Shown: in pieces, positions 41,688 to 47,422 of the stretch
Layout of the letters: every line of letters starts with the position of its first letter
Numbering within the stretch: position 1 is the first letter of the stretch
IMG/VR virus record: IMGVR_UViG_3300025944_000001
Coordinates: 659 to 64,658 of that record
Strand: one strand, 5' to 3'
DNA: 64,000 nucleotides
Source of the DNA: a virus
Taxonomy: Duplodnaviria; Caudoviricetes
The notes under the pieces: generated by a model
What the model saw: the letters and a program-made list of their open reading frames with translations, nothing else
What the model was told of the DNA's origin: nothing
The model's database searches: none
Made by a program: the position numbers and the translations under genes

Positions 41688-42503
41688 TTAGGCTTGCATC
41701 GCACGCCAAAGTTTGTCTTGTTGCTGCCCAGTCAACTCATATGGGACCGCGCTACCGAAGTTCTTTTCCATGTATGTCTGCCACTGGCCGCGAACATCGG
41801 GCGGCATACTCATTAGCGCGTCTGTGATATCGTCGACGACCGACCGGTAGCCACCTCGGGCTGGTTGCGCCGATTCCTCATCACGCGACCCGGTAGGTGC
41901 GTGCGCTCCCGGCACGTCGCCGAAGTCATCGGCGGTAGCGACCGCAGCGCCCGTTCCGAACGGAGTGTCCTTGTAGCAAAACTGTAGAGCGCGAAGGCCA
42001 GGGGCGACACCTTTCGACTCGTTGTTGAACGCGTAAAAGTTGAGTTGCGCCTTAGCCCAATCACCAGACACCCACCCATCGACCGCGCGCGCTTCCGACT
42101 TATCGTGCGCGTTCATTAATCGCGGCGGCTTGTCTTCTTTGGCCGTGGCGTTCACAAACCAGTAGCCGGGATACTTAGGCACCCAATTACCTTTGCCGTC
42201 ATCAGCGGTAACGACGTCGCCGTCTTTCAGACACATCTTGAACACGTTGTCAGGCGCGTTCATGTACTTGTCGACTTCCTTCGGGCCGAACTCGTCGGCG
42301 ATAGCGGCACGTATCGCCGCGATGAGTTTGTCGTATTGCCCCGCGACGTAATATGGGTGTGCCGGGCCTTTCGGGAACAGCAGCGTCGCCTCGTACCAGC
42401 GCTTCAACGCGCCGTTCTGCATCTTTTCGCGCGGCTTGAAGACGTTCAGCCAGCTCAATCGGCACGGGCCGACGATAATCAGACAATCAGGATTTGCAGC
42501 CAT
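41688..42503 (-). CDS. ssDNA-binding protein, DUF2815 / T7 gp2.5-like (271 aa)
   Basis: GPCRLSWLNVFKP..YEATLLFPK, CLKDGD, SGDWAKAQLNFYAFNNESKGVAPGLRALQF..PFG. Confidence 0.8.
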   Translation of the reverse strand: MAANPDCLIIVGPCRLSWLNVFKPREKMQNGALKRWYEATLLFPKGPAHPYYVAGQYDKLIAAIRAAIADEFGPKEVDKYMNAPDNVFKMCLKDGDVVTADDGKGNWVPKYPGYWFVNATAKEDKPPRLMNAHDKSEARAVDGWVSGDWAKAQLNFYAFNNESKGVAPGLRALQFCYKDTPFGTGAAVATADDFGDVPGAHAPTGSRDEESAQPARGGYRSVVDDITDALMSMPPDVRGQWQTYMEKNFGSAVPYELTGQQQDKLWRAMQA

Positions 42504-42532
42504 GTTAGTAGGTTCCTTAAAGTTTTAGTAGT

Positions 42533-42856
42533 TCATTCGTCTAGTGGCTCAACGCCACCAATCCAGTCAAAGAGTGCGCGGTGCCGACACCGCCGATGAC
42601 GGCTCAACGTGTCCATACAATCGCACTCAACGGCGTAGTACAGCCCGTCAGGTCGCGGTGCCGTTACGATCTGGTGCGGCTCGTGCGGAGTCGCCTTACC
42701 AGTGTCACAGTCCCGGTGCCAGACGCGCATCAAAATCACGTTCACGAAGTCGAAGCCGCTCCGGTCGCGCCAGGTCGGCAGGAACCCGCACGGCGCAAAG
42801 CAGTAGTTGTTCAGGTCGCGTTTCGCCCGTGCCAGATGCGGCGGTAGTTTACTCAT
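42533..42856 (-). CDS. SWIM Zn-finger-like protein (107 aa)
   Basis: ECDCMD...RCRHR. Confidence 0.5.
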   Translation of the reverse strand: MSKLPPHLARAKRDLNNYCFAPCGFLPTWRDRSGFDFVNVILMRVWHRDCDTGKATPHEPHQIVTAPRPDGLYYAVECDCMDTLSRHRRCRHRALFDWIGGVEPLDE

Positions 42857-43077
42857 CGTTTCGTCCTCGTCGCGAACCGCTCACGGAACTTGTTGAACTG
42901 CGCTCGCTCGACCTCGGTCAACTGCACCACGTGAACAACCGGGCGACCACGGAACCACAGGGCGCAATCTGCATGCTGAGTGCGCCAACCGTGACCGGGC
43001 CACCGCTCGAAGTGTCCTAGGCCCGGTTCGACCGTTTGACCGCATCGGTAGCAAGTGCCAGCGTACTTGTTTCTCAC
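42853..43077 (-). CDS. Small Zn-binding phage protein (74 aa)
   Basis: MRNKYAGTCYRCG..V.PG.G...HADCA. Confidence 0.55.
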   Translation of the reverse strand: MRNKYAGTCYRCGQTVEPGLGHFERWPGHGWRTQHADCALWFRGRPVVHVVQLTEVERAQFNKFRERFATRTKR

Positions 43078-43949
43078 CTGTGCACCTCCGTGAACCCGAA
43101 CGCTTCGGCGTTACGGTCGGCGCGCACGTCGGCGGCGGATCGGCGCGCCGTCTTGGAGCGGACACGCTCGGGAAAGTAACCGGCTTTGCGCCGTTCCGAC
43201 AGCCACGCCGAAAGGTTCGATTCGGCGAACCGCCGTAACCGCGCCATGTCGTAGCCGCCCGGTATGTGCTCTAGATTAAGCGTCCCGGCGTCCATTGCCC
43301 GCATCCACAGCAACGGCGTCACGCACCGCCATAGCGCATCGTCTACCTGCGCCTGCGTCCACGTCCGAAGCTGCGCGCCATCTGCGCCAATCAGCAGGCT
43401 ACCGTAGGCTGTACGCGCCCCGTACGGCTCGTTACGGCCGTCGACATAGGCGACTGTCTCAAGGCGCGCCTGCATGGCAATCTGCGCAAGGAACCACGGC
43501 GATGGCGATACGCTGTCCTGTGTCTTCCCGTCGATGAGCCACTGCCCCGAGTCGTCGACCAACTCACCGCCGTCGATATCGGGCGTACCGGCGTAACCGA
43601 GTGTCACATTCGCACCCGGCGTCTCGATGCGGCGGGCGCGGATGACGTGTTCGGCACACCAGTTTATGGCGCTCGTGACGTACGGCAGAACCCAGTCGAT
43701 TTGCAGGCAGTAGCCGTTCCGTCCGATTTCCCATTCACACCACTCATCGATATAGGCGTCGCCGACAGTGCCCTCAATCTGCGCCTGCATCGCGAGGTGC
43801 ACGAGGCTCCCGCGCTGCATGTAGCGCGGGTGTGGCGGGTACTCGGGCTTGATGGGTGCGAGCACCGACGTTATTGATGGAAGGCGAAGGTCGCCGACAC
43901 GGTACGCGCCATCGATCCGTTGGGCGTAGGCGACGATCGTCATGTCCAC
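43074..43949 (-). CDS. PD-(D/E)XK (Cas4/exonuclease-like) recombination nuclease (291 aa)
   Basis: LPSITSVL, RGSLVH, GYAGTPDI..LIDGKT, AQIAM; next to the SSB gene. Confidence 0.7.
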   Translation of the reverse strand: MDMTIVAYAQRIDGAYRVGDLRLPSITSVLAPIKPEYPPHPRYMQRGSLVHLAMQAQIEGTVGDAYIDEWCEWEIGRNGYCLQIDWVLPYVTSAINWCAEHVIRARRIETPGANVTLGYAGTPDIDGGELVDDSGQWLIDGKTQDSVSPSPWFLAQIAMQARLETVAYVDGRNEPYGARTAYGSLLIGADGAQLRTWTQAQVDDALWRCVTPLLWMRAMDAGTLNLEHIPGGYDMARLRRFAESNLSAWLSERRKAGYFPERVRSKTARRSAADVRADRNAEAFGFTEVHR

Positions 43950-45612: not shown

Positions 45613-45810
45613 CTAGGCGGCTCGCTTCATATCAGGTGCACCGCGTGCAAGATGGCCGCTGTCAAGCCGCCCGTTATCGCCTGCACGATTGCATCGATAA
45701 GCCGATTGTTGAACCGTCGTTTCCTTATCAATCCTCCCGTCATGGTGAACTCCTCTCTCGCCGTTCCATCGGCGGTCTTGCTGCCGTCCGTGCTCATCTA
45801 TGGGCATCAT
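45613..45810 (-). CDS. Hypothetical protein (65 aa)
   Basis: ORF right after tRNA-like element A; weak support. Confidence 0.3.
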   Translation of the reverse strand: MMPIDEHGRQQDRRWNGERGVHHDGRIDKETTVQQSAYRCNRAGDNGRLDSGHLARGAPDMKRAA

Positions 45811-45831: not shown

Positions 45832-45890
45832 TGGACCGGGAGGGAATCGAACCCTCACACTCTAGCGCTGTACCAATCAGCTTCCGGCCC
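45832..45890 (-). ncRNA. tRNA-like RNA A (59 nt) with no anticodon arm
   Basis: GGGCCGG AA GCTG-ATTGGTA-CAGC GCTAGAGTGT GAGGG-TTCGATT-CCCTC CCGGTCC A: 7-bp acceptor, 4-bp D stem, 5-bp T stem and canonical T loop, with only 10 nt between D and T arms. Confidence 0.75.
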
Positions 45891-45911
45891 GTATCGTCGT
45901 TACGCCGTCTC

Positions 45912-45949
45912 GCACGGGGCGGGCTGTTGACGTCGCGCCCGCCCCGTGC
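45912..45949. other. Perfect 13-bp GC hairpin just upstream of element A
   Basis: GCACGGGGCGGGC-(12 nt)-GCCCGCCCCGTGC. Confidence 0.6.
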
Positions 45950-46156
45950 TCTCTTCCAAACCAGCTATCTCAGAAATCCATATCAATTACGATAGGTCAC
46001 CTGATGGTTGCCGGTGCCCCGCTTTCGTTGTAGGTCGGTGTCACCTCCGTTTGCTGATTGCCTCGGTGGGCGCAAAGTGAATGTGAGTGCATGGGATTTT
46101 CCGGCGCAAGGCGCGCGGTAATCGTCGACCCCTCGAACGAACATTAGCACTCACAA

Positions 46157-46224
46157 AGGGGACCGGTGGAATCGAACCACCCCGCAACTATCCCTAGTCC
46201 GCACTGCCACTGTGCTTAGTCCCC
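46157..46224 (-). ncRNA. tRNA-like RNA B (68 nt) with the anticodon loop replaced by a GGGA tetraloop
   Basis: GGGGACT AA GCAC-AGTGGCA-GTGC G GACTA-GGGA-TAGTT GCGG GGTGG-TTCGATT-CCACC GGTCCCC T: full cloverleaf, but a 4-nt GNRA loop instead of a 7-nt anticodon loop. Confidence 0.8.
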
Positions 46225-46287
46225 GGCAATCATGGGGCTGATCTCCACCCTAGCCCCGCCCTCCTTCCTGCGCTCCGATGTGCGCGG

Positions 46288-46551
46288 CTAGGCTGCAATC
46301 CTCTCCCGCGTCGCGTACCGCCGCGTCGGCGCGGGCGTCGTCACGACTTCGAACTGCTCGGCTACTTCCGCCATGTGCGCCCGTGACGGCGGCAGGATTT
46401 CGGCATCGTCGAACCAGACGCGGTGACCGCCATCAAGCCACGACTTAGCGTTCGCGTTCGCCGCCGCCGCGATGTGCGGGTTATTGTTGTCCGGGTAGCT
46501 GCCGCGCAACGCCTTGCGGCCGTCGATTTCAACGTAGAGGTTCATCGTCAT
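46288..46551 (-). CDS. Hypothetical protein between the nucleotidyltransferase and the tRNA-like RNAs (87 aa)
   Basis: GGGAG RBS; 8 nt after the NTase stop. Confidence 0.55.
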   Translation of the reverse strand: MTMNLYVEIDGRKALRGSYPDNNNPHIAAAANANAKSWLDGGHRVWFDDAEILPPSRAHMAEVAEQFEVVTTPAPTRRYATRERIAA

Positions 46552-46558
46552 TAACTCC

Positions 46559-47422
46559 CTAGAACATGCGGTTGATTAGTTCAAGCAGGTAATCGTTCGG
46601 AACCTGTCCGTCTTCAAACTTCTTGTTCAACGCTTCGATAAGCATGGTGAAGAACAGAGCGTCGACACCCACGAGTTGGTCTTCAAGGATGGAAATGTTG
46701 TGCAAGTCGAGTTGGCTGATTTGCAGGGCCATCTTGAGTATCTGCCCTGCATTGATGCGCCAGCCGCGTTCAATGAACTTGCGCACCCGGAACATGGAAC
46801 ACACTGGATACTTCGACCCAACGTATCGCAGTTCTCGCGCCATCAAACATTCGAGCGCGTGGACATTAAGCACGAGTTCGCCGTCCCAAGACGTCCAGTA
46901 ATTGGTGCAGTGAATAAAGTCGAAGTTCTCGTGAATGGCCTCGGGTTCGCCGTAGAAGCGGATGACCAACTGAACCCGACCGTTCAAAGTAATCGCGTTG
47001 CTCGAAAGGAATACAGGCAGGTAAGCGCCTTCATCGTCGCCTTCAAGTACGGCCGGTTCGTCGACCACTTCGGTTTCGTCGGCGCTCTCGCCAGCAACGC
47101 CAGCCGATTTAATGAATATCCGCACCCTGCCCGACTCGTCGACTTTAACGGTCGAGTCTTTGACGGATTGACGCGTTGACTTGAACTTTTCAAGGTAGTA
47201 GTTGGCAACAGCCTCGGTGGTCGCCTTGTCCTTGAAGTAGATATCGAAGTCGTTGACTTCCTCGCCAAGAAGCATTGAGGCGATACAGCCACCGGTCACG
47301 ATAGAGCTGCGCTCAACCCACTTGCGCACTTTCTCATCCTCGATACTGGCGACGAACTCGTTGAACTTTCGAGTAATCACGCCCTTGATTGTTTTGGTCG
47401 TTAAGCCTCGCGTCATGTCCAT
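46559..47422 (-). CDS. Nucleotidyltransferase, CCA-adding/poly(A) polymerase head-domain-like (287 aa)
   Basis: VTGGCIASMLLGEEVNDFDIYF (cf. GGxVRDxLLGxxxxDxD), ENFDFIHCTNYW (cf. RRDFTINA), YPVCSMFRVRKF (cf. DPLRxLRAxRF); AAGGAG before ATG 47422. Confidence 0.7.
   Translation of the reverse strand: MDMTRGLTTKTIKGVITRKFNEFVASIEDEKVRKWVERSSIVTGGCIASMLLGEEVNDFDIYFKDKATTEAVANYYLEKFKSTRQSVKDSTVKVDESGRVRIFIKSAGVAGESADETEVVDEPAVLEGDDEGAYLPVFLSSNAITLNGRVQLVIRFYGEPEAIHENFDFIHCTNYWTSWDGELVLNVHALECLMARELRYVGSKYPVCSMFRVRKFIERGWRINAGQILKMALQISQLDLHNISILEDQLVGVDALFFTMLIEALNKKFEDGQVPNDYLLELINRMF

Follow-up and report, generated by a model that had tools for sequence, protein, structure and literature searches.

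Here we describe a locus in the early-left operon of a temperate phage (Duplodnaviria, Caudoviricetes), where a nucleotidyltransferase (NTase) gene stands together with two tRNA-shaped, non-decoding elements. The stretch analyzed, hereafter the window, comprises 64,000 nucleotides (nt) of the IMG/VR record IMGVR_UViG_3300025944_000001 (positions 659 to 64,658), that is, nearly all of a 64,658-bp virus record. An initial annotation, made from the sequence itself, had presented the locus as a candidate new system in which a CCA-adding-like enzyme would be co-transcribed with two anticodon-less tRNA mimics. The enzyme and the tRNA-like elements do stand together, in this phage and in a few others, without amounting to a conserved system. 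Three features are at the center of this work:

46559..47422, minus strand: gene for a 287-aa nucleotidyltransferase of the Gad2 family, PF26128 (phrog_4400, PF26128, AlphaFold model and structure searches)
46157..46224, minus strand: element A, a 68-nt full cloverleaf (minimum-free-energy fold, strict scanner and covariance model R1)
45832..45890, minus strand: element B, a 59-nt gene of tRNA-Phe type (Rfam, R1 and minimum-free-energy fold)

The coordinates and strand first given for A and B are right. Minimum-free-energy (MFE) folding returned a cloverleaf for A and the proposed shape for B. Element A has a 7-bp acceptor stem, a 4-bp D stem with GG in the loop, a 5-bp T stem with the loop TTCGATT, and a 5-bp anticodon stem capped by a loop of four nucleotides, GGGA, in place of seven; its discriminator is U. 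In B the acceptor, D and T arms are present and the anticodon loop is missing together with the 3′ strand of its stem, leaving just 10 nt between the D and T arms, where the anticodon arm and variable loop belong; the element carries a G3:U70 pair and an A as discriminator (A73). Across both elements the stem pairs are intact (37 of 37), and the G18G19 dinucleotide and the TTCRA signature of the T loop are retained. The decoding features are another matter: of the 7-nt anticodon loop on a 5-bp stem, A shows a loop of 4 nt and B neither loop nor stem. No CCA is encoded in either, the bases past the discriminator being TTG and TTC, as had been annotated. Both present an A at position 8, which was considered as a rare shared mark and dropped, being just mildly unusual (5 of 67 phage tRNAs sampled).

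Covariance models and a strict scanner recognize these elements. The Rfam tRNA model (RF00005) scores B at 45.9 bits against a gathering score of 29, skipping the anticodon stem-loop; A falls below that gathering score, and its best match of the clan is tRNA-Sec, with 19.3 bits. Model R1, a covariance model built from 28 ordinary phage tRNAs with A and B excluded, gave 42.9 bits (E 4e-9) for B and 34.9 bits (E 8e-7) for A over a search space of 623 kb. A strict scanner, requiring a 7-bp acceptor, a 4-bp D stem with GG, a 5-bp T stem and a TTCRANN loop, matched A and B in the window and nothing else, with no match in 20 shuffled windows. ARAGORN reported zero tRNAs across the whole window, and A and B are the sole cloverleaf-like sequences in the 64.6-kb genome. 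Altogether, A and B are genuine tRNA-shaped, non-decoding elements, so that this part of the initial annotation holds. Two near-identical contigs (L026 and L027) match the window across the whole A/B segment, giving three copies with no variation to read.

The origin of B can be read in some detail. Its 22-nt segment comprising the T arm and the 3′ acceptor strand has exact matches solely to tRNA-Phe(GAA) genes in three large viral contigs. Aligned with the tRNA-Phe of one of them (L063), B is identical at 53 of 59 positions, and a single clean gap of 12 nt corresponds to the anticodon loop plus the 3′ strand of the stem. The other strand of that stem, the 5′ one (CTAGA), persists, as does a variable loop of Phe type, GTGT. 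The remaining changes include A to G at position 3, which gives the G3:U70 pair beside A73, a compensated swap in the D stem, and the replacement of one G·U pair of the T stem by A-U. Judged from this alignment, B descends from a gene of tRNA-Phe type that lost 12 nt. The anticodon-stem and variable region of A loosely resemble the Phe type, and its origin is less clear than that of B. Since nine of the 16 stem pairs shared by A and B differ between them, eight of these on both sides, and yet all of them pair, both elements come from functional tRNA-type genes which lost the anticodon loop by different lesions. The large-phage tRNA clusters found through the tRNA-Phe match of B (L062 5358-5452; L063 2636-2737 and 2893-3011; L064 2919-3010) hold recurrent elements of their own, mostly missed by ARAGORN or called "tRNA-???". 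Their acceptor is AGTCAGG/CCTGACT, the T arm is good, and a stretch of 42-70 nt takes the place of the anticodon arm.

Concerning the enzyme, the match to phrog_4400 is strong (E 9e-67), a large protein search returned 5956 relatives, of which all 120 listed carry PF26128, and protein atlas clusters at a score of 0.98-0.99 are 99-100% PF26128. The PF26128 assignment is a precomputed one, made on the identical protein in the near-identical contigs L026 and L027 and on the 120 listed homologues; NCBIfam gave no match. The 287-aa protein thus belongs to PF26128, the "Gabija anti-defence 2" (Gad2) family, and the new kind of enzyme that had been suspected turns out to be a member of a family already named.

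The Pfam PolyA_pol head (PF01743) remains below its cutoff (16.3 bits against 23, E 0.012, over residues 42-92 alone), and PolyA_pol_RNAbd does not match the protein. An AlphaFold (AF2) model built from 61 sequences (pLDDT, the predicted local distance difference test score, 82) was compared with solved structures, a check proposed in the initial annotation: the top ~30 Foldseek matches in the PDB are all CCA-, CC- or A-adding enzymes or the E. coli poly(A) polymerase (E 2.5e-5 to ~7e-3), with 23 matches at E ≤1e-3 and 5HC9 as the best (E 2.5e-5). VIA gave Z scores of 8.6-10.3 for this class (3AQL, 10.3; 9KMA and 3WFO, 9.8; 1MIV, 8.9) and just 3.9 for MenT1. The NTase motifs are present, and G44, G45, D58 and D60 (GG...DxD) are invariant in 61 homologues, in agreement with the class II NTase-like head that had been read from the sequence. 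In the structural alignments the match breaks off at about residue 220-300 of the target, the targets having 344-517 residues; the enzyme is ~110 residues shorter than class II CCA-adding enzymes, its head and neck being matched and the body and tail absent. It is therefore predicted, on the basis of the model, to be a Pol-beta enzyme with the head and neck fold of class II CCA-adding enzymes and poly(A) polymerase. As for EDxxR, the nucleotide-template motif in the neck of class II enzymes, F156-x-G-E159-P160 of the alignment consensus may, in our reading, correspond to F-x-x-(E)D-P; the segment keeps E-P and not the Arg, whose position is not conserved.

A member of the family in Bacillus phage SBSphiC (L069 3001-4086; host B. 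subtilis BEST7003 according to the record) is a protein of 361 aa, 35% identical to that of the window. tblastn searches with either of the two proteins gave no SPbeta-like record among the matches. SBSphiC is presumably restricted by the Gabija of B. cereus and, if so, family membership alone does not confer escape from Gabija.

Sister phages help to see how the locus was assembled. Three contigs (L065, L066 and L067) share the operon, with nucleotide identities of 90-92% at the end of a 78-aa gene, 94% in an 87-aa gene and 81-89% in a 155-aa gene. All three are devoid of the NTase gene, with a precise cassette-sized gap between the 78-aa and 87-aa genes, and all three are devoid of the A/B segment, in whose place unrelated sequence or an 80-aa open reading frame (ORF) is found; no tRNA-like signal appears in them even at loose thresholds. 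The NTase gene has a GC content of 52%, versus 59% for the window and 63-66% for the flanking genes; this deviation, together with the cassette-sized gap, gives it the look of a recently acquired gene (a moron). The NTase gene and the A/B segment are two separate indels that co-vary, which is suggestive, resting on one lineage with both inserts and two or three without them.

The linkage was then followed across ~210 loci of NTase homologues, with flanks of at most ±3 kb; 180 of the loci encode distinct proteins. They came from phage records, viral contigs, species genomes and metagenomes, and were scanned with ARAGORN, two scanners of our own, Rfam and R1. Most have nothing tRNA-like nearby. 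Ordinary tRNAs stand near the NTase gene at some 12 independent loci; with few exceptions they share its strand, and most encode their own CCA. In L142, L145 and L183 an ordinary tRNA lies 25-33 nt from the NTase gene, on the same strand in all. Elements whose anticodon loop is disrupted were found in two other places, a partly positive outcome for the linkage check suggested in the initial annotation. In L123 (1587-1680), a 94-nt tRNA-like element is located 17 nt past the NTase stop on the same strand (Rfam tRNA, 44.6 bits), whose anticodon stem of 9 bp bears a branched loop of 23 nt; it has U73, CCA is absent, and the contig stops 73 nt beyond it. In L114 (4977-5241), two tRNA-like elements, 84 nt apart, lie ~1.0 and ~1.2 kb downstream of the NTase homologue, on the same strand and past two ORFs. 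The first (Rfam, 41.2 bits) has a 4-nt loop, CUAA, at the anticodon position and a 29-nt insert in the D loop, while in the second a 6-bp hairpin is closed by the 4-nt loop UAGC and the variable region holds an additional hairpin resembling a T arm. ARAGORN misses the L123 element, and its calls on the L114 elements are negative or dubious; one element per locus exceeds the Rfam gathering score, and all three reach 31-36 bits on R1. The order in L114 (enzyme, small ORFs, two non-decoding tRNA-like elements) mirrors that of the window, and the NTases of the window, L114 and L123 are not sisters on the family tree. Because our detectors require an intact acceptor stem and T arm, the preservation of the "top half" in L114 and L123 is partly an ascertainment effect.

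Two further calls from these loci deserve mention. The "tRNA-Leu" given by ARAGORN directly after the NTase gene in L114 is taken as a false call, since it overlaps a 181-aa ORF and is supported by neither covariance model. In L110 (556-845), a permuted two-piece gene for transfer-messenger RNA (tmRNA) of betaproteobacterial type lies 2.2 kb upstream of the NTase homologue; it is probably the ssrA gene of the host at a prophage attachment site.

The setting of the three features in the operon of the window involves the following elements:

48925-48897 and 48625-48597, minus strand: two sites resembling sigma-70 promoters (TTGACA-17-TAAAAT) that head the early-left operon, opposite the gene for a cI-like repressor (promoter scan)
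46288..46551, minus strand: 87-aa ORF of unassigned function, separating the NTase gene from element A (ORF list)
45891..46156, minus strand: spacer of 266 nt between A and B, structured and ending in a 13-bp hairpin (folding against shuffles)
45913..45949, minus strand: GC-rich hairpin, perfect over 13 bp, 22 nt upstream of B (folding energy -32.8 kcal/mol, z -5.4)
45627..45797, minus strand: 56-aa ORF, the first after B, at whose start sister-phage homology resumes (ORF list)

A cI-like helix-turn-helix (HTH) gene is divergent from the leftward operon, which is headed by the two sigma-70-like sites; HTH families are annotated on the divergent gene in L026. Going leftward, several small ORFs are followed by the 287-aa gene, the 87-aa ORF, ~490 nt without convincing ORFs and the 56-aa ORF, and farther downstream by genes that include those for an exonuclease-like protein and a Gp2.5-like protein annealing single-stranded DNA (window 41688-43949, minus strand). 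The NTase gene therefore stands just upstream of a recombination module, like those homologues found beside ERF and SSB. Every gene from the promoter-like sites onward is oriented leftward, with ends that overlap or abut. The promoter scan found no sigma-70-like site on the minus strand between the NTase gene and B, and neither promoter nor terminator turned up inside the NTase-to-B stretch. The co-transcription of the NTase gene with A and B, asserted initially, is in this light plausible, and stays at the level of a prediction. A large serine recombinase is encoded near the repressor, while A and B lie inside the early operon, and a role of the elements as attP or as an integration remnant was rejected on these grounds.

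The single 87-aa ORF between the NTase gene and A, already listed in the initial annotation, is kept in sister phages that have neither the NTase gene nor A/B (the 94% nucleotide identity being that of L065 and L066). One homologue was found, 93% identical; Pfam, PHROG and NCBIfam gave no family match, and there is no homology with the ORFs between the NTase gene and the tRNA-like elements in L114. The 56-aa ORF has a basic middle and a hydrophobic C-terminal helix, and matches no family in Pfam or PHROG; its product could be a small membrane or toxin-like peptide. As for the spacer, its MFE is -100.9 kcal/mol (z -2.95; 1 of 200 shuffles was equally good), with a 9-bp long-range helix near the 5′ end besides the terminal hairpin, and it has neither an Rfam family nor relatives that we could find. 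The 13-bp hairpin has no U tract behind it and is not called as a terminator; its 5′ half is common to the sister contigs, the sequences diverging past that point. The hairpin upstream of A is no better than chance (z -0.12).

How could these pieces be related? RNase P, RNase Z, CCA-adding enzymes, EF-Tu and AlaRS read the acceptor/T-arm half of a tRNA, and minihelices are established substrates. We lean, tentatively and at somewhat less than even confidence, towards an accessory early pair, formed by a Gad2-type enzyme and retained non-decoding "top-half" tRNA mimics, whose coupling would be optional. The operon carries two accessory inserts absent from the sister phages: a compositionally foreign enzyme gene and two non-decoding, tRNA-derived genes. 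RNase P, RNase Z and CCA-adding enzymes recognize a tRNA by its acceptor stem, T arm and D/T elbow. As exactly these parts are intact, A and B would probably be cut from the early transcript as RNAs of 60-70 nt and then be given CCA. The retained mimics would act in the same early counter-defence program as the enzyme, and two routes seem the most probable: the CCA-like enzyme may take them as 3′-end clients, or they may offer a tRNA body to which anticodon-arm nucleases of the OLD, PARIS or Septu type can bind without being able to cut it. The coupling would be optional rather than obligatory because most family members stand alone.

Recent work gives some context. The anticodon stem of tRNAs is a target of OLD-family and PARIS TOPRIM nucleases, which phage tRNAs escape when their own stem is altered (PMC12445682, PMC11464382, 10.64898/2026.07.10.737580): P2 Old cuts both strands of the stem, an "amputation", and PARIS AriB cuts tRNA-Lys (PMC12445682, PMC11464382). 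GajA, of the same ATPase-TOPRIM lineage as these nucleases, is known to cut DNA. An uncleavable tRNA body beside an enzyme of an anti-Gabija family with a CCA-adding fold would make an attractive pairing, each functional step of which is inferred.

Several observations weigh against the accessory-pair reading. Close to 98% of the ~180 distinct loci are without a non-decoding tRNA-like RNA, which is present at three of them, the window included. Leaving out the discovery case, two loci in ~0.25 Mb of downstream flank are, by our own estimate, not clearly above background and a weak enrichment at best, and across 25 whole viral records the NTase gene shows no convincing clustering with the nearest tRNA, the distances between them being unremarkable. 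The usual neighbors are the recombination genes ERF, SSB and Gp157, with DUF968 also among the common ones, none of them in more than 26 of 180 loci, and clustering of same-strand neighbor ORFs over the 180 loci yielded no conserved partner gene. Exact-pattern scans of viral contigs detected no relatives of A, B or the L114 and L123 elements other than the tRNA-Phe genes matching the T arm and acceptor of B, so that covariation cannot be invoked for any single RNA. Moreover, CCA-adding enzymes grip the elbow of the tRNA with a body and a tail, neither of which this enzyme has, and no solved CCA enzyme was found by sequence (single sequence or profile against PDB chains). A stoichiometric decoy must compete with the whole tRNA pool of the host. 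Gabija itself is known to act on DNA, not on tRNA (PMC12445682). A cloned Brevibacillus homologue of Gad2 is sufficient by itself to block Gabija (10.1101/2023.05.01.538930); for the known activity of the family, a partner RNA is thus dispensable. What stands of the "candidate new system" is thus the pairing and its recurrence: in L114 and L123 the RNAs lie downstream on the same strand, and the sister phages are without enzyme and RNAs alike. The generality that the term implies is not borne out, given the absence of a conserved neighbor gene, the usual recombination-module context, the many loci without RNA and a Gad2 that acts alone.

Much of the same evidence feeds a serious rival, to which we give a real, if less than favored, chance: A and B would be recently inactivated tRNA genes, mere relics in a hypervariable slot of the early operon, and the Gad2-family enzyme would act alone, for instance on Gabija, and be unconnected with them. 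The loss of 12 nt beside the palindromic CTAG of the stem is essentially all that sets B apart from a phage tRNA-Phe, and it has the aspect of a simple slippage-type event. A and B are missing in sister phages and have no relatives anywhere scanned, most NTase homologues have no tRNA-like neighbor, and Gad2 acts by itself (10.1101/2023.05.01.538930). Phage tRNA clusters commonly contain odd tRNA-like elements (L062-L064, with weak matches in the 25 whole viral records), and the retained top half in L114 and L123 is in part the ascertainment effect already mentioned. The anatomy of the elements speaks in the opposite direction. Decay would hardly be expected to spare all 37 stem pairs and the tertiary-contact bases of both elements, nor to confine two independent lesions to the anticodon loop, ~22% of a tRNA; that two different lesions each remove just this loop favors a retained pair. 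The lesion in element A is no ragged deletion: a stable GNRA-type tetraloop closes a re-registered 5-bp stem. Loops of 4 nt at the anticodon position are met again in L114, in both elements downstream of the NTase homologue. The phage retains no working tRNAs and, since its genome is without ordinary tRNA, A and B would not be the tail of a decaying tRNA cluster. Read from sequence, this anatomy (intact pairs and elbow nucleotides, two loop-confined lesions, the tetraloop, no working tRNA and the L114 recurrence) argues for retention over decay. If A and B are relics after all, the finding shrinks to one more Gad2-family gene in a recombination-module hotspot.

A bolder extension of the accessory-pair reading, which we regard as unlikely, would take Gad2-family proteins as trimmed CCA-adding enzymes acting on tRNA-type 3′ ends, some phages supplying dedicated tetraloop-capped or armless mimics. 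Together they would neutralize tRNA-directed ATPase-TOPRIM defences of the OLD/PARIS/Septu/Gabija lineage, the mimic as an uncleavable body and the enzyme by maturing or tagging it. Were this true, the locus would reveal how Gad2 works and would establish phage counter-defence RNAs of a new class.

Quite improbable in our estimation is that A and B serve as punctuation, that is, as RNase P and RNase Z cleavage signals that cut the early transcript, fix upstream 3′ ends behind hairpins and release the 266-nt spacer. It has analogues in mascRNA for MALAT1 and in the tRNAs of mitochondrial transcripts, and the retained parts are just those that RNase P and RNase Z read; if A and B are processed, the spacer would indeed come free as a separate RNA. 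The perfect hairpin without a U tract 22 nt upstream of B, the spacer more structured than its shuffles, the stretch without promoter or terminator and the weak match of B to the mascRNA model (21 bits, a similarity of shape alone) are in line with it. The chance-level hairpin upstream of A does not fit, the sister phages do without these signals, the spacer has neither relatives nor an Rfam family, and the co-variation with the NTase gene is left unexplained. Finally, it is very improbable that the tRNA-like RNAs restrain a toxic enzyme of the phage itself, as an RNA antidote or sponge whose preferred phage substrates spare host tRNAs until needed: the SPbetaL7 Gad2 is toxic when expressed (10.1101/2023.05.01.538930), a phage NTase linked by its authors to Gad2-annotated homologues is cytotoxic at high induction in P. 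putida (10.64898/2026.09.15.751885), and this lineage gains or loses the NTase gene together with the RNAs. Against it, most family members have no such RNA, nothing points to binding of tRNA by the enzyme, and MenT1, a tRNA-modifying NTase toxin, matches the model just weakly.

Returning to the accessory pair, its interest lies in two leads on the Gad2 family, namely a shortened CCA-adding fold and, in at least three unrelated lineages, tRNA-shaped RNAs without an anticodon loop just downstream of the gene. They raise the testable question of whether Gad2 acts on tRNA-type 3′ ends. Furthermore, clean examples are added of non-decoding tRNA derivatives encoded by phages; cutting of the anticodon arm by OLD-family nucleases and rescue by phage tRNAs have only recently been described. 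We know of no prior description of non-decoding tRNA derivatives juxtaposed with Gad2-type enzymes.

Among known systems, Gad2 itself is the closest to the enzyme. The Gad2 of phage SPbetaL7 is needed to escape Gabija, and AlphaFold had suggested an NTase domain in it (10.1101/2023.05.01.538930); its mechanism is still listed as unknown in a review (PMC12904381). It is likewise an early accessory gene of phages and prophages with a predicted nucleotidyltransferase domain (PF26128). The protein tested has 400 aa and comes from SPbeta-like Bacillus phages, whereas that of the window has 287 aa, the two being likened by family and not by direct alignment, and no tRNA-like partner has been described for Gad2. 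With class II tRNA nucleotidyltransferases and poly(A) polymerase I (PF01743; 5HC9, 1MIV, 3AQL, 3WFO), the window protein shares the head and neck fold and the GG...DxD motif; it differs by its shorter length, without body or tail, by a PF01743 score below cutoff and by having no solved relative by sequence. The MenT/AbiEii toxins that modify tRNA 3′ ends are also Pol-beta NTases, and some databases name relatives of the window protein "AbiEii/AbiGii toxin family"; the structural likeness is nevertheless weak (Z 3.9 for MenT1 versus ~10 for CCA-adding enzymes), and the locus shows no antitoxin gene arrangement.

Regarding the RNAs, nuclease-resistant phage tRNAs, such as the T5 tRNA-Lys facing PARIS (PMC11464382) and a phage tRNA-Thr facing P2 OLD (PMC12445682), decode and replace the cleaved host tRNA; A and B, unlike them, have no anticodon and cannot replace any tRNA. 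A nearer likeness is offered by mascRNA/MEN-beta, the tRNA-like domain of tmRNA and the bacterial YrlA RNAs, in which the acceptor/T-arm half is also kept, the anticodon arm is reduced or absent, and processing is carried out by tRNA enzymes. B is not a member of the mascRNA-menRNA family (RF01684; 21.1 bits against a cutoff of 42.5), Rfam gave no YrlA match at A/B, and no Ro60/Rsr or SmpB gene was noticed nearby. A tmRNA or two-piece tmRNA at A/B was rejected, ARAGORN reporting none in the window and Rfam none in the region. B does share with tmRNA the G3:U70 pair with A73, the alanine identity pair that tmRNA uses, and A and B differ from mascRNA, tmRNA and YrlA as contiguous tRNA-derived genes in a phage operon. 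They belong, then, to none of those families while resembling known mimics in principle, and the enzyme beside them is a new member of a known family.

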